32,000 bases of DNA from assembly GCF_004376175.1 (NCBI RefSeq), contig NZ_SNUY01000006.1, positions 1-32,000 of the forward strand, given 5' to 3'. Origin of the DNA: Halalkalibacterium halodurans (GTDB lineage Bacteria > Bacillota > Bacilli > Bacillales > Bacillaceae_D). The first letter of the stretch is position 1. Every line of letters starts with the position of its first letter. Made by a program: the position numbers and the translations under genes. The notes beneath the pieces are model-generated. The model did not search any database and was not told the origin of the DNA. It was given only the letters and a program-made list of their open reading frames with translations. This document shows positions 2,352 to 9,934 of this stretch, piece by piece.

Positions 2352-2380
2352 ATTCTATCGGTGATACAGGAGATTGTCAA
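2352..2380 (-). promoter_or_regulatory. Sigma-A type promoter for rny
   Basis: The minus strand reads TTGACA (2380-2375), a 17-nt spacer, then TAGAAT (2357-2352). The -35 hexamer contains the TGA stop codon of the upstream 221-aa gene. No terminator lies between that gene and rny. Confidence 0.6.
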
Positions 2381-3042
2381 GTGTTGTCAATTTTAACAAC
2401 TTCGCTGACGCCATCGCGAATGTCAACATGATAGGCTGTGTCCCCTGACTCCGCCAAGTGATGATTATGGGTAATCATTAAGATTTGGCGCCCAAACATC
2501 GTAGCTAATGACCTCAAAAACTCATAAAGAGGCTGGACATATTCCTCGGAGACGTGCTTGCCTGGCTCGTCAAGCAAAATCGGGCCTGGCATGGACGGTT
2601 GTATCGTTTCAAGCAATGCAACCCTAAGGGCGAGAGTGACGATGTCGACTACCCCGCCTCCTCTCGATTCCTGTGGCTTCGTTTTGACTTTTACTCCCTC
2701 GTATTCTGTTAACACGTAAAATTCAGCGACCGCTTTGCTTCCATGCTCTTCAAGTTCAATGTGAAAGGAAAACAATGGTCCAAACACATATTGCAGAGCA
2801 TTCGTTACGAGCGATTCTATTTGTTGCTTCGCTTGCTCCCGTGCATATTCTGCAGACTGTTGCAAGAGAATTCGCGCCTTTTCATAAACATCCCTTGTCT
2901 CACGAAAAGATTCTAGCTGTTTTAGCTTTTCATCCAATTGCTTTAGCAGTAGCTGTCTTGTCGCATCAAGCCGTTGCCACTCTTCATTCGCTTTCTTCAA
3001 TCGTTGCTGGACGCTCGCAAAATGGACAACATACTCACTCAT
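2377..3042 (-). CDS. Rad50/SbcC-like ATPase, C-terminal head piece (short coiled coil plus signature, Walker B and H-loop)
   Basis: 221 aa. The N-terminal ~80 aa are heptad-like (LKKANEEWQRLDATRQLLLKQLDEKLKQLESF). They are followed by SRGGGVVDIVTLALRVALLE (ABC signature-like), GPILLDEPGKHV (Walker B) and LMITHNHHL (H-loop). The ATG overlaps the upstream stop as ATGAGTGA. Confidence 0.8.
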   Translation of the reverse strand: MSEYVVHFASVQQRLKKANEEWQRLDATRQLLLKQLDEKLKQLESFRETRDVYEKARILLQQSAEYAREQAKQQIESLVTNALQYVFGPLFSFHIELEEHGSKAVAEFYVLTEYEGVKVKTKPQESRGGGVVDIVTLALRVALLETIQPSMPGPILLDEPGKHVSEEYVQPLYEFLRSLATMFGRQILMITHNHHLAESGDTAYHVDIRDGVSEVVKIDNT

Positions 3043-3286
3043 CCCGCAACAGTTCCTTTGGAATTAAATCCATCGTTTCCTGGAGGCCTTTTTCGATTTC
3101 CCGCTCCAAGCGTGCAATTTCTCCTTCTAAATCCTCAGGTTTTACGCCAAGCTCCTCCAAATCTTCCAATAGGCGTTTTCGCTGGTTTTCAAGCTCCTCT
3201 AGTTTCGCTTCAGCTCGGTAGCGCATATCCTTTCCTTTTTCAATCGCTTCCTTCATTTTTGCTAGCTGTTGTTCTACTTGTTTCAT
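3035..3286 (-). CDS. 83-aa charged coiled-coil protein (middle piece of the split Rad50/SbcC-like ATPase)
   Basis: The ORF-track frame 3035-3391 is trimmed to the internal ATG at 3286, which is preceded by GGAGGATGG plus 4 nt. Product: MKQVEQQLAKMKEAIEKGKDMRYRAEAKLEELENQRKRLLEDLEELGVKPEDLEGEIARLEREIEKGLQETMDLIPKELLRDE. The discarded 35 N-terminal codons overlap the preceding gene and look non-coding. Confidence 0.6.
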   Translation of the reverse strand: MKQVEQQLAKMKEAIEKGKDMRYRAEAKLEELENQRKRLLEDLEELGVKPEDLEGEIARLEREIEKGLQETMDLIPKELLRDE

Positions 3287-3317
3287 GGTTCCATCCTCCA
3301 AATCTTTACTCAACCGA

Positions 3318-4730
3318 TCAGTGGCGAATCGCCTGACCACAGGTCGGGCACGTACCTTCCTGTAAAAGAAGCTGATGATGGTCATGCTCAAGCTTGATCA
3401 GTTCTTGTTTTGTTTTATGTAAGAAGGCTTGTCCATCGTCCATTCGTTTTCTCACGTGTTCAACTTGTTGCTGTAACTCTTTTAGTTTCCCCAGCTTTTC
3501 GAGCTGGGCGTTTAACTGTCCAATCTGCTCGTTCGCTATGACGGCCCCATTCGATTGATCTTTTTTTTCTTGCCATTGAATCCGCTCTTGTTCATAGTTC
3601 CGCCATCTACGATAGATAGTGTCAAGGTGTTGCTTCCGTTCGTAATAAGCTTGCAGCTTATGAAAGTTGACGATCCGATCTGTTGTGACAAAGGACGTTT
3701 TTTCAAACGCCGCAAAGGCATGATGCTTAACCCTTTCCTGTTCGTCCCAATACCGCTTATGTTTAGATAGGACTTCAAGCCTTCCTTTTAGTTCACTCAT
3801 TCTGTTCAACTGCTCATTCGCTAATGCCATTTGATTTGTTTTCTGAATCCATAAGTGGCACTTTGTCACCTGTGTCTTTAACTCACCTAGTTGGCGATGA
3901 AACTGACGATAAACCGTTAGGCGTGAGAGAGCCGCTTGAATCCGTTCATACCCATGGATCCACTCCTCAAGGTGTTGTACCCGCGTCAGCTGCCTCCGAA
4001 CGTGGGCTTGTTGTTCCCTTTGTTGTTCCAGCGCGCGCTCGAATTCCATAAGCTTTTTCTTTTTTTCCTCAAGCTGGTGAAGCTCGTTCATTTTCTGTTC
4101 CGCTTGTTCAAGCTTCCGCTTATGTAAATCGAGCGATTGAAAAGGAAGCAATTCCCCCTCGATTCGTTGTGCCTCTTCTTCATCATACTTCATTTTTTGA
4201 TTCAATCTCGAGAGGTCTTTCGTCGTATCGCGTATCGCCATGTCCAAAAAGTGTGCACCACTAATTCGACCGATTGCTTTTGCTCGGATCGCTCCTGTCT
4301 GATCAAGGAGAAATGGTCCGTCAAGCTGTTGAGCAACGTGAAGCTGGATTTCATGATCACGGTCAATTCGAAGTGGCTTCATTCCGTGGGCGTCCAGCAC
4401 CTCTTGTGGAACATGAATACCAAATCCCTCTAGGATAAGGTCTTCCTCCTCTGGCCGCTTTATGACATAACGATTCTTCGAAGGAGTACGTTCACGAACA
4501 ATGGTTGTTCCATCAGTAAACGTCACACGAACACGGACAAAATCAGCACCTGCCCTCATGAAGTCCGTCCCTCTTGGCAAATTAAACAAGGCCCAGCGAA
4601 TGGCCCGTAAGATTGAGGTCTTTCCACTGTCAGATTCCCCGACAATGACATTCATCCCTTCGCCAAATTCAATAACCGTATCAAGGTGTGATTGAAAATT
4701 TTCAAGCCTGACCTGATTAATCGTACTCAT
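3318..4730 (-). CDS. Rad50/SbcC-like ATPase, N-terminal head piece plus long coiled coil ending in a CxxC zinc hook
   Basis: Start is set at ATG 4730, with AAAGGTGGGG 4 nt upstream. The track start 4757 lies inside the upstream gene. Features are VRLENFQSH, Walker A GESDSGKTS, then roughly 270-290 aa of E/K/Q/L heptad sequence. The C-terminus is EGTCPTCGQAIRH-stop. Confidence 0.8.
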   Translation of the reverse strand: MSTINQVRLENFQSHLDTVIEFGEGMNVIVGESDSGKTSILRAIRWALFNLPRGTDFMRAGADFVRVRVTFTDGTTIVRERTPSKNRYVIKRPEEEDLILEGFGIHVPQEVLDAHGMKPLRIDRDHEIQLHVAQQLDGPFLLDQTGAIRAKAIGRISGAHFLDMAIRDTTKDLSRLNQKMKYDEEEAQRIEGELLPFQSLDLHKRKLEQAEQKMNELHQLEEKKKKLMEFERALEQQREQQAHVRRQLTRVQHLEEWIHGYERIQAALSRLTVYRQFHRQLGELKTQVTKCHLWIQKTNQMALANEQLNRMSELKGRLEVLSKHKRYWDEQERVKHHAFAAFEKTSFVTTDRIVNFHKLQAYYERKQHLDTIYRRWRNYEQERIQWQEKKDQSNGAVIANEQIGQLNAQLEKLGKLKELQQQVEHVRKRMDDGQAFLHKTKQELIKLEHDHHQLLLQEGTCPTCGQAIRH

Positions 4731-5715
4731 GTTCCCCACCTTTCCAAGCTTCCTCAATGACGGTAATTCTCCTTAATGCCTCTTGTTTCACCGGTTCTTC
4801 CACATTGGACATCGCCGCAATTTCATTGATCACATCATTCATATTTAACGACTGGAATTCGGCATGCTCTTTCACTTGCTGAATAAAGGCATGAAGTTTT
4901 TCTTCTTGATTTACAGACTTTTCTAAAAAGCTCCGATCAAGAACCTCTTCGCCATTTTTCGCTGATTGTAGCGGACGCTCCTTTAAATCAATACCATCTT
5001 TTGTAATCGTCCCTAAAATGACCGTAGGAGTGCGGACAAGCTCTGTCCAGTGGTTGTTAATCCGAGCAATGGCCCCTGGGTTGCATATGTAACGTCCGTC
5101 CTTTTGTTTAATGCCAAAGCCACCGTGAAAATGGCCTGTTAACAACACGTCCGCACTTGTTCCCCATATATGATCGATCAATGTATGTGGAATTCCTTCC
5201 GGCAAGGCTTTCTCAACGAGCATACTATGAACGAGATGGACCATCACATCCGCTTCATGGACATTCACCGGATAATAGTCAAGCTTCGGATCTCGCTGAT
5301 CAATATCGTAATGGTACGGCTGGCCAGAAATTTGGACTTTCACTCCATCTTTTTCAACTAACACGGGCGTTTGTGGATCGATAATGTGAATGATTCCAAA
5401 TGAATGAAGCAATCCAAGCATCGTGCGTGAAATCGTCTCAGGATTATGCCCAAATGTGTCATGATTTCCAGCAATCGCGTAGATCGGCCGTGAGGTTTTA
5501 CGGAAAATTTGCGCAAACTGACCGACAACATTTGGTGAAAGGTCAGGCCGATCAAACACATCCCCCCCATGGAGCAGCATATCCACTTTTTCCGTCTCTG
5601 CGATCTCCATTACTTCATGGAGCTTGTGTTTTAACGTTTCCACGAACGGATCTAACCGATTTTTCGGTGCTGTTCCGCGAATATGTGTATCTGTAAAATA
5701 TAAAAATTTGATCAT
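4717..5715 (-). CDS. Mre11/SbcD-like calcineurin-fold metallophosphoesterase (putative nuclease subunit)
   Basis: 332 aa. Motifs occur in canonical order: FTDTHIRG (DxH), HGGDVFDRPD (GDxxD), IAGNHDTF (GNHD), LTGHFHGG (GHxH). An in-frame TAA five codons upstream fixes the ATG. The SD is weak (GACGAG). The 3' end overlaps the next gene by 14 nt. Confidence 0.8.
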   Translation of the reverse strand: MIKFLYFTDTHIRGTAPKNRLDPFVETLKHKLHEVMEIAETEKVDMLLHGGDVFDRPDLSPNVVGQFAQIFRKTSRPIYAIAGNHDTFGHNPETISRTMLGLLHSFGIIHIIDPQTPVLVEKDGVKVQISGQPYHYDIDQRDPKLDYYPVNVHEADVMVHLVHSMLVEKALPEGIPHTLIDHIWGTSADVLLTGHFHGGFGIKQKDGRYICNPGAIARINNHWTELVRTPTVILGTITKDGIDLKERPLQSAKNGEEVLDRSFLEKSVNQEEKLHAFIQQVKEHAEFQSLNMNDVINEIAAMSNVEEPVKQEALRRITVIEEAWKGGEHEYD

Positions 5716-5836: not shown

Positions 5837-6886
5837 TTATTTCAAATCGAGTGGGAGATCTTCAAACTCCTCTTCCGATGGAGCCTCCACCTCAATCTCT
5901 CCGTTCAAACCGTAATGCTCGCGAATTCGGCTTTCAATTTCCTCCGCAGCTTCAGGGTTTTCCTTTAAAAATTGTTTCGCATTCTCGCGCCCTTGACCGA
6001 GACGCTCGTCATTGAAGGAATACCAAGCTCCGCTTTTTTGCACAATATCAAGCTCAGAAGCAATATCTAAAATCGAGCCTTCACGGGAAATCCCTTCACC
6101 GTACATAATATCCACTTCCGCTTGTTTAAACGGAGGAGCCACTTTGTTTTTCACGACTTTAATTTTCGTCTTGTTACCGACCATATCGTTTCCTTGCTTT
6201 AACGTCTCTGCACGGCGCACTTCGAGACGAACAGAGGAATAGAACTTAAGCGCTCTTCCCCCCGGTGTCGTTTCCGGGTTTCCGAACATAACACCAACTT
6301 TTTCACGAATTTGGTTAATGAAAATCGCAATTGTTTTTGACTTATTGATCGCACCTGAAAGCTTCCGAAGCGCTTGAGACATTAGGCGTGCTTGCAAGCC
6401 AACATGGCTGTCACCCATCTCCCCTTCTATTTCCGCTTTCGGTACAAGAGCTGCCACACTGTCGATGACAATGACGTCAATGGCCCCGCTGCGAACTAAC
6501 GCTTCAGCGATTTCCAACGCTTGTTCTCCGGTATCAGGCTGTGACAATAAGAGCTCATCAATGTTTACACCTAGCTTTTTCGCATAAACCGGATCAAGGG
6601 CATGTTCCGCATCAATAAACGCAGCTTGACCACCATTTCTTTGCACCTCTGCAATCGCATGGAGGGCAACGGTCGTTTTACCAGATGATTCTGGACCATA
6701 CACTTCAATAACTCTTCCACGAGGGTATCCACCAACACCCAGGGCGATGTCAAGGGCAAGAGCACCGCTGGAAATGGTAGATACACGTTGTTCTGCTTGT
6801 TCTCCCAGCTTCATGATCGAGCCTTTTCCGAATTGCTTTTCAATTTGTCGTAACGCCATGTCCAACGCTGCTTTACGATCACTCAT
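5837..6886 (-). CDS. recA: Recombinase RecA
   Basis: 349 aa. It has Walker [10 protein letters not shown] plus [19 protein letters not shown] and [15 protein letters not shown]. There is no interruption (no intron or intein). Confidence 0.98.
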
Positions 6887-6992: not shown

Positions 6993-7006
6993 CGAACATT
7001 TATTCG
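6993..7006 (-). promoter_or_regulatory. LexA (Cheo/SOS) box upstream of the recA promoter
   Basis: The minus strand reads CGAATAAATGTTCG. This fits the Bacillus consensus CGAAC-N4-GTTCG with one mismatch. It has the same GAAT...GTTC form I recall for B. subtilis recA. It lies 9 nt upstream of the -35. Confidence 0.65.
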
Positions 7007-7077: not shown

Positions 7078-8697
7078 CTATTTTTGAAATGTTCTTCGCT
7101 GTGATTCCCGCTTTGGACGAGGTTTTGCTGGCTCAAGGTTCACACGAGCACCGTTGATCCTTGAGTAACGAAGCGCTTCATAAACAAACGGAGCCACTTC
7201 TTCAGGCACTTCAACAAACGTGAATTTTTCAAAGATGTCGATTCGGCCGATCGCCTTACCAGGAATGTCAACAAGCTCTGCAATCTCCTCGACAAGAATC
7301 TTTGGACTCATATTCACATTTCTACCAACATTGATAAAGAAACGGACCATGCCTTTGGCACCACCGGTTTCCCCAAAGCTATATCCCGCATCCTCAGGAG
7401 TTGTGTCCATCGCGTAGTTTAATTGAAGGAGAGCAGAGATCACCTCTTTTGAATCGTACTCTGCCATCAACTCTTCAGTCATTTGCTCGAAGAGGTGCTT
7501 TTGGTTAGAGCCTTTCTCAATTCGATGGGCGATTTGTTTCTTCCATGATTCTTTTTGTTTTTCCACCACATCTTCAATCGTTGGCACTTCTTGAGACGGG
7601 ATTGACATTTTAATTTCTTGTTCGATCGAACGGAGATGTTTCATTTCCCTTGGCGTGACAAGCGTAAGTGCAAGCCCTTTACGTCCTGCACGGCCTGTAC
7701 GACCGATCCGGTGAACATAGCTTTCTGGATCTTGGGGAATATCATAATTGATCACGTGAGAGACGTTCCCCACGTCAATCCCTCTCGCCGCCACATCGGT
7801 GGCAATCAAGAATTCAATCGATGAGTCACGGAATTTCCGCATAACTGCATCACGCTGAGATTGTGTTAAATCACCGTGTAATCCATCGGCAATGTAACCG
7901 CGAGCTTGCAATGCTTCCGTTAGCTCTGCCACCCCTTTTTTCGTCCGGCAAAACAAAATTCCAAGATCAATCTGCTCGCTGTCAATAATCCGGCAAAGAG
8001 AATCTAATTTATTCCGCTCTAACACTTTATAATAAAATTGATCGATAGAAGGTGCTGTCACTTCACGTCGATTGATGGATACGGTTTGTGGATCGTTCAT
8101 ATATTTGCGAGATAGCTTTTTAATCGCTGGCGGCATCGTCGCAGAGAAAAGCAAGGTTTGGCGCTCATTTTTCACCTGGCGCAGAATGGACTCGATATCA
8201 TCGATAAAGCCCATATCAAGCATTTCATCAGCTTCGTCTAAAATCACTGTATTAACGTGGTCTAAAATTAACGTTTTCCGACGCAGATGATCGATAATAC
8301 GACCCGGTGTCCCAATGACGACTTGAACTCCTTGTTTTAAAGCTTTGATTTGATGAACAATCGATTGTCCCCCATAAATCGGAAGGGTACGAATTTTTTT
8401 GTGCTTGGAAAGCTTTTGAATTTCTCCTGACACTTGGATTGCTAGCTCTCGTGTAGGTGTTAAGATAAGAGCCTGTACATGGCGGCCCGTCGTCACTTTT
8501 TCCACTACTGGTATGCCAAACGCAGCTGTTTTTCCTGTTCCTGTTTGGGCTTGGCCAATGACATCACCACCTGCAAGGATTGCAGGAATCGCCTTTGCTT
8601 GGATAGGAGATGGCTCTTCAAATCCCATCTCAATAATCGCCTTTTTAATTTCTTCTCCAATTTGTAACTCATTAAACTTTATCATTGCTTCGTTCAT
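7078..8697 (-). CDS. DEAD-box ATP-dependent RNA helicase with DbpA/DeaD-type C-terminal RNA-binding domain
   Basis: 539 aa. Motifs: Q motif FEEPSPIQ, motif I AQTGTGKT, Ia PTRELA, II DEAD, III SAT, VI HRIGRTGRAG. The C-terminal RBD-like block is VRFFINVGRNVNMSPKILVEEIAELVDIPGKAIGRIDIFEKFTFVEVP, followed by a basic tail. An alternative start is ATG 8685. Either start overlaps the cinA 3' end. Confidence 0.9.
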   Translation of the reverse strand: MNEAMIKFNELQIGEEIKKAIIEMGFEEPSPIQAKAIPAILAGGDVIGQAQTGTGKTAAFGIPVVEKVTTGRHVQALILTPTRELAIQVSGEIQKLSKHKKIRTLPIYGGQSIVHQIKALKQGVQVVIGTPGRIIDHLRRKTLILDHVNTVILDEADEMLDMGFIDDIESILRQVKNERQTLLFSATMPPAIKKLSRKYMNDPQTVSINRREVTAPSIDQFYYKVLERNKLDSLCRIIDSEQIDLGILFCRTKKGVAELTEALQARGYIADGLHGDLTQSQRDAVMRKFRDSSIEFLIATDVAARGIDVGNVSHVINYDIPQDPESYVHRIGRTGRAGRKGLALTLVTPREMKHLRSIEQEIKMSIPSQEVPTIEDVVEKQKESWKKQIAHRIEKGSNQKHLFEQMTEELMAEYDSKEVISALLQLNYAMDTTPEDAGYSFGETGGAKGMVRFFINVGRNVNMSPKILVEEIAELVDIPGKAIGRIDIFEKFTFVEVPEEVAPFVYEALRYSRINGARVNLEPAKPRPKRESQRRTFQK

Positions 8698-9934
8698 TCC
8701 ACCTTTTTATTCTGTTCAAGATCTGCTGGCATCCGTGCTTTAATGTGCGCTCACGAATCTGTTCACGGCTGCCAGAAAGTTGAAGGGTGATCGCTTCCGG
8801 CTCGTCATCTCGGAAGCACAAACCGATAAATACCGTACCTGGTTCTTTTCCTTCGGATGGTGACGGTCCAGCTACACCTGTAAAACTGATCGTCACATCA
8901 GCCTTTGTTAGCTTTTTCACTCCTTGTGCCATCGCTATAGCACATTCTGGGCTGACTGCCCCGTGCTGTTCTAACACGTGTGGAGGGACGTTTAGCCAAC
9001 TTTGCTTCATGTCATTAGTATATGTGGTTATCGCGGCAAGAAAACAGGCAGATGCCCCAGGAATATTTGTTATTCTGGCGCCGAATAATCCTCCTGTCAG
9101 GCTTTCTGCACTAGCAAGCGAAAGCCCCGTTTTCGTTAAACACGAAACGAGCTTTTCCATTAAAGAAGTTTCGTCATATCCATAAAAATAGTGACCGACC
9201 CGCTCACGTATCTTCCTCTCTGTTTCATCTAACAGCAGCGCTGCCTGTGTTTCATCATGATGCTTTACTGTTAACCTTAACGTGACTTCTCCTTCGCTGG
9301 CAAGGGGAGCAATCGTTGGGTTCGATTGACCATCTATGAGATCTTCTAGCTCGGTCTCAAGCTTCGATTCTCCGATGCCAAAAAAGCGCAGTACGCGGGA
9401 AATAATTTGCACATCGCCAACATGGCTGCTTAAGAATGGAATGACTTGCTCTGTCACCATCGGTCTCATTTCCCGTGGCGGACCTGGTAAAAGAACATAG
9501 GTGACCCCTTGATGGATCGTCGCCATACCTGGTGCCATGCCATAATGATTTTGAAAAATAGTAGCCTCTTTCAGGACGAGTGCTTGTTTGCGATTGTTTT
9601 CCGTCATTGGCAAGTTTCGTTTCTCAAAAAAGGAAACAATTTGCTCAAGGGCTACTTCATCGATCACAAGCTCTTTGTGAAGAAACGATGCCACAACCTC
9701 TTTAGTCAAATCATCCTTCGTTGGCCCCAGTCCCCCAGTGAGGATGATCAACTCGGAACGTTTACTTGCGATTTCAAGCGTTTCCTGAAGTCTTGTCGCG
9801 TTGTCACCAACGACAGAGTGATAAAAAACGTCAACCCCTGCTTTTGCTAGCTGCTGCGAGAGGAATTGGCCATTTGTATTCGCAATTTGTCCTAAAAGCA
9901 GTTCTGAACCGACAGCAATTACTTCTGCTTTCAT
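8672..9934 (-). CDS. cinA: Competence/damage-inducible protein CinA (MoCF-like domain plus nicotinamide-nucleotide amidase domain)
   Basis: 420 aa. The N-terminus is MKAEVIAVGSELLLGQIANTNGQFLSQQLAKAGVDV. The C-terminal PncC-like half contains SLASAESLTGGLFG. Synteny is pgsA-cinA-recA. Confidence 0.92.
   Translation of the reverse strand: MKAEVIAVGSELLLGQIANTNGQFLSQQLAKAGVDVFYHSVVGDNATRLQETLEIASKRSELIILTGGLGPTKDDLTKEVVASFLHKELVIDEVALEQIVSFFEKRNLPMTENNRKQALVLKEATIFQNHYGMAPGMATIHQGVTYVLLPGPPREMRPMVTEQVIPFLSSHVGDVQIISRVLRFFGIGESKLETELEDLIDGQSNPTIAPLASEGEVTLRLTVKHHDETQAALLLDETERKIRERVGHYFYGYDETSLMEKLVSCLTKTGLSLASAESLTGGLFGARITNIPGASACFLAAITTYTNDMKQSWLNVPPHVLEQHGAVSPECAIAMAQGVKKLTKADVTISFTGVAGPSPSEGKEPGTVFIGLCFRDDEPEAITLQLSGSREQIRERTLKHGCQQILNRIKRWNERSNDKV

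Follow-up and report, generated by a model that had tools for sequence, protein, structure and literature searches.

The four genes A, B, C and D that lie between recA and rny in the 32,000-nucleotide stretch of Halalkalibacterium halodurans DNA analyzed here (hereafter the window) probably, at roughly 0.7 in our estimate, encode a four-subunit, ATP-driven nuclease of the Mre11-Rad50/SbcCD type that processes DNA ends and DNA structures and has a Rad50 naturally divided at its zinc hook. The tightly packed genes, all on the minus strand, are A (4717-5715; 332 aa), a predicted Mre11/SbcD-like metallophosphoesterase nuclease; B (3318-4730; ATG start, 470 aa), a Rad50-type head N-lobe with a five-module arm and a C-terminal zinc hook; C (3035-3286; 83 aa), a helix-turn-helix subunit; and D (2377-3042; 221 aa), an N-terminal stalk helix joined to a Rad50/SMC head C-lobe. 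Both neighbors are conserved and on the same strand, namely recA upstream (5837-6886; Pfam RecA) and rny, encoding RNase Y, downstream (664-2229; Pfam RNase_Y_N/KH/HD). A and B overlap by 14 nt (ATGAGTACGATTAA), AAGGTGGGG precedes the start of B, a 31-nt gap before C holds GGAGG (3295-3299 in plus-strand numbering) 8 nt from the C start, and the C/D overlap reads ATGAGTGA. The consecutive genes B, C and D each occupy a different reading frame, and each gene has its own start and ribosome-binding site. In some annotations C begins at an upstream TTG and measures 116 aa; the placement of the GGAGG and the onset of orthologue conservation support the 83-aa ATG as its likely start. A promoter-like TTGACA-17-TAGAAT is seen at 2380-2352, on the rny side of the cassette. 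Coordinates and translation confirm the open reading frames, overlaps, gap and motifs given in an earlier sequence-only reading of this DNA, which did not record the minus-strand orientation of the genes.

Translation of A reveals the motifs DTH, GDVFD, GNHD and GHFH, of which GNHD, phosphoesterase motif III (residues 83-86; 5458-5469, minus strand), is invariant in 81 orthologues, as are D9, H11, D52, N84, H85, H163, H195 and H197. A thus keeps every catalytic residue of Mre11/SbcD. This conservation, taken together with a match to Pfam Metallophos (2e-11) and top PDB sequence matches that are all Mre11 (2e-7 with the single sequence, 6e-11 with a profile), upholds the Mre11/SbcD-like identity originally proposed for A. 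Its strong similarity to Mre11 is confined to motifs I-III, and an Mre11-type capping domain is unproven because residues 154-262 match the small phosphoesterase Vps29 equally well. A scores below the NCBIfam SbcD/Mre11 cut-offs, and all four proteins fall below the curated NCBIfam/Pfam cut-offs for SbcD, Mre11 and Rad50.

The N-terminal region of B contains ENFQSH and the Walker A motif GESDSGKT (residues 31-38; 4617-4640, minus strand), in which G31, S33, D34, G36 and K37 are invariant in 75 homologues. B matches AAA_23 (3e-17), NCBIfam Rad50 (5e-20, under the cut-off) and, weakly, AAA_27 (8e-5), which we take to be the YhaN-type domain; its profile recovers the Pyrococcus furiosus Rad50 N-lobe (4e-12), which is also the best Foldseek match (2e-7) of its AF2 model (pLDDT 82, pTM 0.38). 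At the opposite end, six residues from the C-terminus, lies a CPTC zinc hook (residues 461-464; 3339-3350, minus strand) with invariant C461, P462 and C464. The C-terminal part of the B profile matches Rad50 hook structures (2e-4), and in 76 of 76 viral B proteins the CxxC sits 2-28 residues from the C-terminus, all of which bears out the earlier view that the protein ends in a hook. The intervening arm consists of five tandem 47-residue modules (residues 206-440; 3411-4115, minus strand), as detected by autocorrelation, which peaks at lag 47 with a z of 8.6 against shuffles (0/2000), and by hhalign, which aligns 10 of 10 module pairs in register (94-98%). AF2 breaks the helices at 253, 299/300 and 345-353, and the length of B changes between species in steps of exactly +47 or -47 residues. 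It measures 470-495 aa in hundreds of homologues and ranges across species from 321 to 532 aa, equivalent to about 2 to 6 modules and an arm length spread of more than 200 residues; C (84±5 aa) and D (220±6 aa) are constant. Such tandem 47-residue arm modules with a species-variable copy number are new here.

The complementary half of the head is found in D, which carries RGGG, LDEP and THN. The first, an atypical signature-like motif (residues 127-130; 2653-2664, minus strand), is invariant in 67 orthologues, in which the S126 just before it is not conserved; the second, comprising the Walker B motif and the catalytic glutamate (residues 157-160; 2563-2574, minus strand), is likewise invariant. 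A Pfam search returned no family above its cut-off for D. Its AF2 model (pLDDT 85.7), with a long N-terminal stalk helix at residues 2-87, is matched in Foldseek by an SMC C-lobe (5h66_B, 7e-9) and the P. furiosus Rad50 C-lobe (1ii8_B, 2e-8), both with a probability of 1.0. These profile and model matches substantiate the assignment of B and D as the N- and C-halves of a Rad50-type head. In the 120 best-scoring homologues of the window D the protein is 216-229 aa long, and relatives of the clostridial D reach 251 aa.

The split between B and D is widely conserved. Among 80 related genome loci (BLAST E<=1e-3), A is present in 80, B in 79, C in 77 and D in 66, and about 65 have all four as separate genes in the same order; GTDB species genomes contain 339 stretches encoding a B relative. 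At least 98% of the 67-81 orthologues have the motif residues unchanged, and the pattern goes well beyond what chance would produce. B and D are separate in every genome or phage locus having both, in several gene orders that include the phage/viral arrangements B-C-D-A, AB-fusion-C-D and B-A-(C)-D. Proteins that join B-C-D or B-D in one chain are absent from the best 120-150 matches listed per search, and comparison of homologues and loci revealed no orthologous locus encoding a single ATPase of ~770-800 aa. The split is thus, as the sequence-only reading had supposed, a real, conserved multi-subunit design and not the product of two indels.

In the assembly that we propose, B would supply the head N-lobe with Walker A and the Q-loop, and D the C-lobe with the RGGG signature-like motif, Walker B and the H-loop; the long N-terminal helix of D would form an antiparallel pair with the initial helix of the B arm, thereby rebuilding a coiled-coil stalk. 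That a two-chain head is physically viable follows from PDB entries 1f2t/1f2u, 1ii8 and 3qkr, all among the top matches, in which the N-lobe and the C-lobe of Rad50 heads were crystallized as individual chains, A and B. Two B-D heads would come together around two ATP molecules, as Rad50 heads do, and the CPxC at the end of the modular arm would pair with that of a second B via zinc, linking the two arms. A would dock as an Mre11-type nuclease at the head or stalk, with its C-terminus near the B N-terminus; in natural A-B fusions the A C-terminus is joined to the B N-terminus by a linker of about 10-15 residues.

C is a conserved, free-standing helix-turn-helix protein. Its invariant residues are P50, in a GVKPEDL turn, and P76; it is 60-78% identical within Bacillaceae, exceeding the conservation of B; and its 187 representative clusters are nearly all 75-100 aa, with none seen fused to another protein. 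It directly precedes D on chromosomes and on the pCBJ megaplasmid, and does so at most viral loci as well. C would be an obligatory small arm-binding subunit, most simply the hook-side partner strand in short-armed phage versions, in which the arm (~150 residues) is comparable to C plus the D stalk (~140-175 residues). The nearly universal translational coupling of C to D also argues for such a role. The ~265-residue arm of the window B exceeds that span, and the doubt previously voiced over a simple fold-back arm is thereby borne out quantitatively: as the arm varies in length and C and D are constant, a 1:1:1 fold-back fails for long-armed members, and the assembly model is to that extent incomplete. 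The earlier description of C as a piece of the Rad50 polypeptide finds no support, given the invariant central proline, the merely weak resemblance of its first 54 residues to the D stalk helix and the lack of any detected similarity to the B arm modules. That lack of similarity to the modules, along with the constant length of C beside an arm of variable module number and its conserved proline turn where one long helix might be expected, could instead point to a regulator or adaptor, such as an Nbs1/Sae2-like accessory factor or a D chaperone. The long B arm would then be self-sufficient, folding on itself or pairing in parallel with a second B, an arrangement in which module gain or loss is auto-compensating. 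The confident B helices that AF2 gives without a partner agree with this, as do loci lacking C, namely the A-B-D locus of a Mahella MAG, where no C ORF intervenes between the B and D genes, and some viral loci; the pTM of 0.38, however, leaves the packing of the arm unresolved. We consider this alternative possible, though doubtful.

A, B and D find their best matches, by sequence and by fold, in the Mre11-Rad50/SbcCD group. Shared with it are a calcineurin-fold nuclease with five Mre11 motifs, as in P. furiosus Mre11-Rad50, SbcCD and T4 gp46/gp47, the distribution of Walker A and Q-loop to the N-lobe and of the signature-like motif, Walker B and H-loop to the C-lobe, and a helical arm with a CxxC zinc hook. 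Rad50 is, however, a single polypeptide with both arm strands in one chain, whereas B stops 2-28 residues past the hook, the C-lobe resides in a protein of its own whose free stalk spans only ~60 residues, an extra 83-aa subunit is present, the arm is a tandem repeat of variable copy number, and the signature motif is RGGG rather than SGGE/Q. The two-chain PDB entries, whose N-lobe and C-lobe chains rank first in the structural comparisons with B and D, respectively, were truncated in the laboratory and lack arm and hook, unlike the natural, conserved split seen here exactly at the hook. Firmicutes hold, alongside SbcCD, a paralogous Mre11/Rad50-like pair, SbcEF (YhaN/YhaO in B. subtilis), a second pairing of an SMC-like ATPase with a metallophosphoesterase in Bacilli. 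By description, it is set apart by the single ~960-aa chain of YhaN, the lack of any known small C subunit and a different locus.

The context of the cassette favors recombination or repair over defense, on the grounds of housekeeping synteny, native GC content and the absence of defense partners. A follows recA in 58 of the 80 loci, recA-(recX)-ABCD-rny synteny spans two Bacilli families, the alkaliphilic Bacillaceae and the Thermoactinomycetaceae, and several Clostridia likewise have recA upstream. The recA-rny gap had been regarded as a variable slot; in these carrier lineages the cassette is stable there. The only good LexA (Cheo) box in the region, CGAACATTTATTCG, is upstream of recA (6993-7006, no strand assigned); 53 of the 58 recA-containing loci have an equivalent box, CGAATAAATGTTCG, ahead of that gene. 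No such box immediately precedes A in any of the loci compared, so that an SOS link would need read-through from recA.

A role in anti-phage or anti-plasmid DNA surveillance, resembling Lamassu, Gabija or Wadjet and adjoining recA by chance, is unlikely, and this suggestion of the sequence-only reading finds little support. The best PADLOC matches of B are Lamassu LmuB models (1e-19), which share a Rad50-like head and coiled coil; D matches mad3 (4e-9) and LmuB, A weakly matches PDC-S10, and phages and megaplasmids, which carry relatives, also transport defense and counter-defense genes. These matches fall, however, on generic Rad50/SMC head regions. As B corresponds to the N-terminal and D to the C-terminal part of the same LmuB models (~565-1007 positions), LmuB would fit a single chain carrying both lobes. 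LmuB acts with the LmuA effector and LmuC, but the locus contains neither LmuA/LmuC nor a JetABD or GajB partner. The chromosomal cassette retains its housekeeping neighbors across families with no defense island or mobile-element genes, and identity to the window drops with taxonomic distance, as vertical descent predicts.

Phages and megaplasmids commonly carry the four-part family, an occurrence absent from the earlier reading. Family members are found in 109 viral stretches, and B, D and C match PHROG families 16465 (1e-70), 15167 (1e-62) and 18563 (1e-6), respectively; C aligns together with its phage and plasmid counterparts. The phage and plasmid copies adjoin helicase and primase genes and lie in replication and recombination modules, which also speaks against a defense function. 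A and B are sometimes fused, and the Mre11/Rad50 fusion proteins described by Yoshida, Claverie and Ogata (2011) include gp8 of Bacillus phage 0305phi8-36, reported without one of two NTPase segments, which that paper did not locate (PMC3175470). gp8 belongs to the present family (A profile 4e-75, B profile 1e-99), and the missing segment is a separate gene, gp5 (D, 7e-70), with gp7 corresponding to C (3e-14) and an extra gene, gp6, between the two. The window A and B differ from gp8 in being unfused, and Mimivirus-type fusions, reported with full Rad50 domains and both Walker motifs (PMC3175470), differ in kind from the split-Rad50 cassette. That the closest diversity of the family lies in phages, whose forms also vary more in architecture, might suggest that the chromosomal copy derives from a phage recombination module, now domesticated or decaying and of no present use to the host. 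We regard this as very improbable, given that in about 80 species all four genes are intact and their catalytic residues invariant, and given a fixed recA/rny position in two families, no phage genes flanking the cassette in the window, and retention of D even where it is apart from the rest, as in Acetivibrio clariflavus, where D at folD-D-rny and an A-B-C placed elsewhere are both intact.

A pseudogene or assembly artifact, with one SbcC/Rad50 gene broken by two frameshifts into consecutive genes in three different frames, has next to no probability and is already refuted by identical boundaries in eight H. halodurans assemblies and in the ~65 of 80 loci from other species, by separate B and D in phages whatever the gene order, by the lack of fusions among the listed matches, and by the start signals of each gene.

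A search of the literature found no description of this four-part system and no biochemical or genetic data on any member, and its layout is common to many spore-forming bacteria and their phages. The nuclease proposed here would, in phages and megaplasmids, belong to replication and recombination modules, and the chromosomal complex most likely works alongside RecA in recombinational repair, processing broken, blocked or hairpin DNA ends.

Between recA (5837-6886, minus strand; RecA) and rny (664-2229, minus; RNase Y) the window carries a cassette of four minus-strand genes, namely A (4717-5715, 332 aa), B (3318-4730, 470 aa), C (3035-3286, 83 aa) and D (2377-3042, 221 aa). The sequence-only reading of this locus, which proposed a Mre11/SbcD-like nuclease accompanied by a Rad50/SbcC-like ATPase in three pieces, described the gene junctions in a manner that agrees with the window sequence: A and B overlap by 14 nt, a 31-nt spacer carrying GGAGG lies ahead of C, and C and D overlap as ATGAGTGA. 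The motifs that it quoted are also present in the translated genes. The cassette region is ~99.7% identical to that of eight other H. halodurans assemblies, and an identical D protein is encoded in 24 contigs examined, including the chromosome of H. halodurans C-125 (BA000004.3).

Subunit A belongs to the calcineurin-fold phosphoesterases (Pfam Metallophos, 2e-11). In a single-sequence search of solved structures its top match is P. furiosus Mre11 (2e-7) and the best matches are exclusively Mre11/SbcD proteins. A profile built from 22 sequences recovers P. furiosus Mre11 (6e-11) and E. coli SbcD (1.6e-5), as well as the T. maritima, M. jannaschii and eukaryotic versions of Mre11. The confident part of the alignment with Mre11 spans residues 1-117, that is, motifs I-III only, and over residues 154-262 Vps29 scores equally well in the profile search. 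The metal-binding and catalytic residues of the five phosphoesterase motifs shared with Mre11/SbcD, with their characteristic Asp, His and Asn residues (D9, H11, D52, N84, H85, H163, H195 and H197), are invariant across 81 orthologues. These lines of evidence unify A with the Mre11/SbcD-like nucleases, as had been proposed, but at scores below the curated NCBIfam cut-offs: the best model, TIGR00619 (sbcd), gives 37.8 bits against 77.65, and the Mre11 equivalog models give 30-34 bits against cut-offs of 434-600. The C-terminal region of A shows additional conserved positions in the orthologue alignment (D260, R261, F277, E312 and R316), and it is this end that is joined to the N-terminus of B in natural fusions; both observations hint indirectly at a putative capping domain and a putative Rad50-binding helix-loop-helix of the Mre11 type.

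Family scans of B recover AAA_23 (3e-17) and, under its cut-off, the NCBIfam Rad50 model (5e-20); against the curated Rad50 threshold of PRK03918 B scores 71 bits versus 700. The B family profile matches the N-lobe of P. furiosus Rad50 (4e-12), and its last ~70 positions match the Rad50 zinc-hook structures 1l8d and 6zff (about 2e-4). Across 75 homologues the ENFQSH segment, the Walker A residues G31, S33, D34, G36 and K37, the Q-loop glutamine Q135 and the predicted zinc hook C461-P-x-C464 are all invariant. The AF2 model of B (pLDDT 82) displays a β-rich head, followed by helices at 159-252, 254-298, 301-344 and 354-458 and then the hook; in Foldseek searches with this model the N-lobe chains of P. 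furiosus Rad50 rank first (23-31% identity, probability 1.0). The agreement of profile, invariant motifs and fold match thus supports the identification of B as a Rad50-type head N-lobe with a terminal hook.

Subunit D contains no Pfam domain above threshold and scores 31 bits against a curated Rad50/SbcC threshold of 1000. Its AF2 model (pLDDT 85.7) comprises one 86-residue helix followed by an α/β lobe. Foldseek searches pair it with the C-terminal head lobes of SMC from B. subtilis (5h66_B, 7e-9), of Rad50 from P. furiosus (1ii8_B, 2e-8) and of dozens of Mre11-Rad50 complexes, with a probability of 1.0 throughout. The Walker B segment L157-D-E-P160 and the H-loop histidine H192 are invariant, and in conjunction with the fold match they place D as the C-lobe of a Rad50-type head, in line with the sequence-only reading. 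The signature position of this lobe is atypical: at residues 127-130 (window 2653-2664, minus) an invariant R-G-G-G takes the place of S-G-G-[EQ], and the serine preceding it is not conserved. By eye, K-H-V-S follows Walker B at the place of the D-loop aspartate of Rad50, with three of the four residues invariant and the valine nearly so. In light of these two departures the ATP-sandwich chemistry of the B-D head may differ from that of canonical Rad50.

The three-piece layout is conserved in relatives, with ~65 of 80 genome loci retaining the A-B-C-D order; the loci belong to alkaliphilic Bacillaceae, Salsuginibacillus, Thermoactinomycetaceae, Tumebacillus and several Clostridia, and relatives of B are found in 339 stretches of GTDB species genomes. 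Homologues of B are nearly all 470-495 aa among the matches listed (of 540), those of D are 216-229 aa among the best 120 of 888 for the window's D, and relatives of the clostridial D reach 251 aa among the matches listed (of 1557). No B-D or C-D fusion occurs among the D homologues listed, and wherever a genome or viral locus yielded both B and D, each had a gene of its own. Orthologues do not encode the one ~780-aa ATPase that the sequence-only reading had named as the mark of a broken single gene, and a pseudogene or frameshift is ruled out by the conservation of the gene boundaries across assemblies, genomes and viral loci. As judged from these comparisons, the split of the ATPase is both real and ancestral.

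Certain clostridial loci depart from the common arrangement. A radical-SAM gene comes after A-B-C in Acetivibrio and Pseudobacteroides, and BLAST and HMM searches found no D within ±8 kb of A-B-C in loci of this type; loss of D is ruled out, since it is encoded elsewhere in the same genomes. In A. clariflavus D lies directly upstream of rny in the order folD-D-rny-ymdB-spoVS (L092:7001-7681, local coordinates of that locus), with A-B-C elsewhere in the genome beside genes for a rimO-like radical-SAM protein and a pgsA-like CDP-alcohol phosphatidyltransferase. The cassette of this species has been cut between C and D by rearrangement. A Mahella sp. MAG carries an A-B-D variant with 88 nt between B and D (L075:9437-9525) and no C ORF there, and in this lineage C is either encoded elsewhere or dispensable. 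The relocation of D in Acetivibrio, taken together with the C-less locus of Mahella, shows that the subunits are independent of each other.

A tblastn search uncovered relatives of the cassette, with heads 25-36% identical, on Bacillota megaplasmids and in Bacillus phages, the exact cassette being absent from plasmids and phages in this search. In phage 0305phi8-36 gp8 is a 769-aa A-B fusion ending at CPTC, gp7 (92 aa) corresponds to C (3e-14) and gp5 (236 aa) to D (7e-70); the C. baratii plasmid pCBJ shares this layout (A-B fusion of 779 aa, C of 87 aa, D of 212 aa). A phage "Mre11/Rad50 fusion" without half of its ATPase was described in 2011 (Yoshida et al., PMC3175470). The ATPase segment absent from the 0305phi8-36 fusion is the product of the separate D gene, which resolves this oddity. 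Between gp7 and gp5 the same phage encodes gp6 (238 aa; L090:6588-7304), which has no Pfam match, is absent from the chromosomal cassettes and may be a phage-specific accessory subunit. Among PHROGs, 16465 ("exonuclease") matches B (1e-70), 15167 ("ATPase") matches D (1e-62) and 18563 ("unknown") matches C (1e-6).

A scan of viral contigs yielded 109 stretches, from which 80 loci were kept. Their gene orders are B-C-D-A, AB-fusion-C-D and short-B-A-(C)-D, always with B and D as separate genes, and a CxxC motif lies 2-28 residues from the C-terminus in all of the 76 viral B proteins. About 20 of the 32 viral loci scored as A-B-D have a helix-turn-helix ORF of 78-91 aa with a weak match to the C profile directly upstream of D. 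A C gene just ahead of D is thus nearly universal in the family. The B. thuringiensis Bt407 plasmid BTB_502p (L089) encodes an 814-aa A-B fusion and a 102-aa homologue of C, followed in the place of D by three small hypothetical genes (97, 128 and 167 aa). The occurrence of cas3 2 kb downstream indicates a different genomic context for this copy, possibly a conflict-related one.

C had been described as pure charged coiled coil, a characterization that needs revision. An alignment across chromosomes, plasmids and phages reveals a helix at ~3-46, a turn of the form G-[VYF]-x-P-x-[DE]-L with an invariant proline (P50), and a second helix at 51-75 with a conserved P76 after it. An exhaustive search with HMMER across 1.84 billion representative proteins recovered 187 clusters of C relatives, nearly all of 75-100 aa, none of them fused to a B- or D-like protein; comparisons with the PDB returned no credible solved relative. 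A relationship of C to the arm modules of B was rejected at an hhalign probability of 4%. The first 54 residues of C align weakly with the first 54 of D (hhalign 76%, E=2e-5), a score that coiled-coil composition could inflate. Within Bacillaceae identity to the window is 67-79% for A, 64-78% for D and 60-78% for C versus 39-49% for full-length B, and C is therefore under stronger constraint than the arm of B.

The arm of B varies in length in a strikingly regular manner. Where B differs strongly in length between species, the change is always precisely a gain (three loci) or a loss (two loci) of 47 residues, with the lengths of C and D unchanged. Autocorrelation of the 75-sequence profile over B residues 195-455 peaks at lag 47, with z of 8.6 when columns are shuffled and 8.4 when the shuffling preserves heptads; 0 of 2000 shuffles reach the observed value. 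In the window's B this period corresponds to five tandem helical modules at residues 206-252, 253-299, 300-346, 347-393 and 394-440 (window 3411-4115, minus); the breaks between helices in the AF2 model, at 253, 299/300 and 345-353, fall on the first three module boundaries. Pairwise the modules align in 1:1 register (hhalign 94-98%, E=1e-7 to 1e-12), and this register is informative although coiled-coil bias may inflate the scores. The lengths of the viral B proteins cluster near 350, 404, 445, 480 and 525 aa. Over 93 loci B spans 321-532 aa, with C at 84±4.5 aa and D at 220±5.8 aa; the length correlations are r(B,C)=0.17 and r(B,D)=0.5, where the second value comes from a shift of only ~10 residues in D. 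A period of 47 residues is approximately 13 turns of an unsupercoiled α-helix, or ~7 nm, which is close to two turns of B-DNA, a numerical coincidence that may mean nothing.

In short-armed phage members the arm of ~150 residues is about equal to the free stalk of D (~60) plus C (~80), so that a fold-back in trans is arithmetically possible. In H. halodurans, with an arm of ~265 residues, C and the D stalk together fall short by ~90-125 residues, depending on the free part of the D helix. This shortfall, together with the 47-residue steps and the constant lengths of C and D, bears out the mismatch between the arm strands that had been noticed by eye. The extra modules could be accommodated by parallel pairing of two B arms, by several copies of C or by self-folding; helix packing in the AF2 model of B is unreliable (pTM 0.38), so the model does not discriminate between these options. 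We tentatively propose, with a probability of roughly 0.3, that the family is a natural exception to the intramolecular antiparallel arm of Rad50/SMC proteins, in which B, ending at the zinc hook, would carry 47-residue modules whose copy number sets arm length, and the arm would be completed either by parallel pairing of two B chains that zinc clamps at the tips or by several C subunits docked one per module. The complex would then serve as a RecA-linked repair machine in spore-forming Firmicutes and as a core recombination nuclease in many of their phages. With either mode of completion this would represent a new way to build an SMC-like arm.

The genomic neighborhood bears on the likely role. 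The cassette is flanked by pgsA, cinA, a DEAD-box helicase gene and recA on one side and by rny on the other, with ymdB and spoVS after rny in other H. halodurans assemblies. In Thermoactinomycetaceae the order is recA-recX-A-B-C-D-rny, and recA is upstream also in Mahella and other Clostridia MAGs. The GC content of the cassette matches that of its flanks. Homology and synteny point to a role in recombination and repair as the probable function. A defence role appears rather unlikely: the PADLOC matches that might suggest it reflect generic head similarity, and partner genes of known defence systems are absent. Lamassu, in particular, combines a single-chain LmuB with the effector LmuA and with LmuC, whereas the four cassette proteins scanned match, among Lamassu models, those of LmuB only and have recA, rny, cinA and the DEAD-box helicase gene as neighbors. 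The housekeeping flanks, native GC content and lack of defence partners thus favor a repair role over defence.

A LexA box is present upstream of recA (6993-7006), and likewise in nearly all relatives; none occurs immediately ahead of A in any locus compared. The gap from recA to A measures 57-464 nt in Bacillaceae. In the window a promoter-like site (5865-5836) overlaps the end of recA, and the terminator scan found no obvious terminator before A, a hairpin seen by eye after recA missing the T-run rule of the scan. SOS control of the cassette by read-through from recA is possible.

Two further features of the neighborhood were observed. The DEAD-box RNA helicase with a DbpA RNA-binding domain (539 aa; 7078-8697, minus) lies between cinA (8672-9934, minus) and recA, its start overlapping the end of cinA by 26 nt; cinA and recA are adjacent in B. 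subtilis, so that the helicase would be a second insertion in a conserved neighborhood. At the left edge (positions 1-600) the window departs, ~64 nt beyond the rny stop, from each of the eight other H. halodurans assemblies examined, with a 32-nt inverted repeat (~639-670) just before the divergence point. An ISL3 transposase occupies this place in C-125, and in other strains the sequence continues directly into ymdB. This 600-nt segment contains no long ORF, neither it nor the rest of the window has an Rfam match, and it looks like a strain-specific insertion running off the window edge.

The family shares with Rad50/SbcC an N-lobe with Walker A and Q-loop, a C-lobe with Walker B and H-loop and a CxxC hook at the end of the arm, and on the basis of homology and synteny the complex would be expected to work like Mre11-Rad50. 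Two defining structural features of Rad50 are absent, namely the single chain and the matched arm strands. Canonical Rad50/SbcC is one polypeptide, whereas here the B chain stops at the hook and D has its own gene, in Acetivibrio at another locus; the ascending and descending strands of the canonical arm are matched, whereas here the ±47-residue changes in B are uncompensated by C or D. This suggests that the family is a variant rather than a member of the Rad50 kind. To our knowledge textbook SMC/Rad50 proteins all fold back, one chain providing both arm strands and both halves of the ATPase head. In the literature searched, which lay largely outside the subscription journals, neither a hook-split Rad50/SbcC nor the C subunit nor the 47-residue arm repeat is described.

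The A-B-C-D family breaks this fold-back rule and is widespread: relatives of B occur in 339 stretches of GTDB species genomes, and the family is also found in 109 viral stretches and on megaplasmids. Separate, separately mutable proteins carry head, arm, hook and partner strand, and arm length changes in clean 47-residue steps, which renders the roles of the Rad50 arm, its hook and its length directly testable. The analysis also gives names to three families that are now generic or unannotated, including D, which lacks a Pfam domain, and C, which lacks any annotation. For alkaliphilic Bacillaceae, Thermoactinomycetaceae and some Clostridia, it adds a recA-linked candidate to the repair repertoire.
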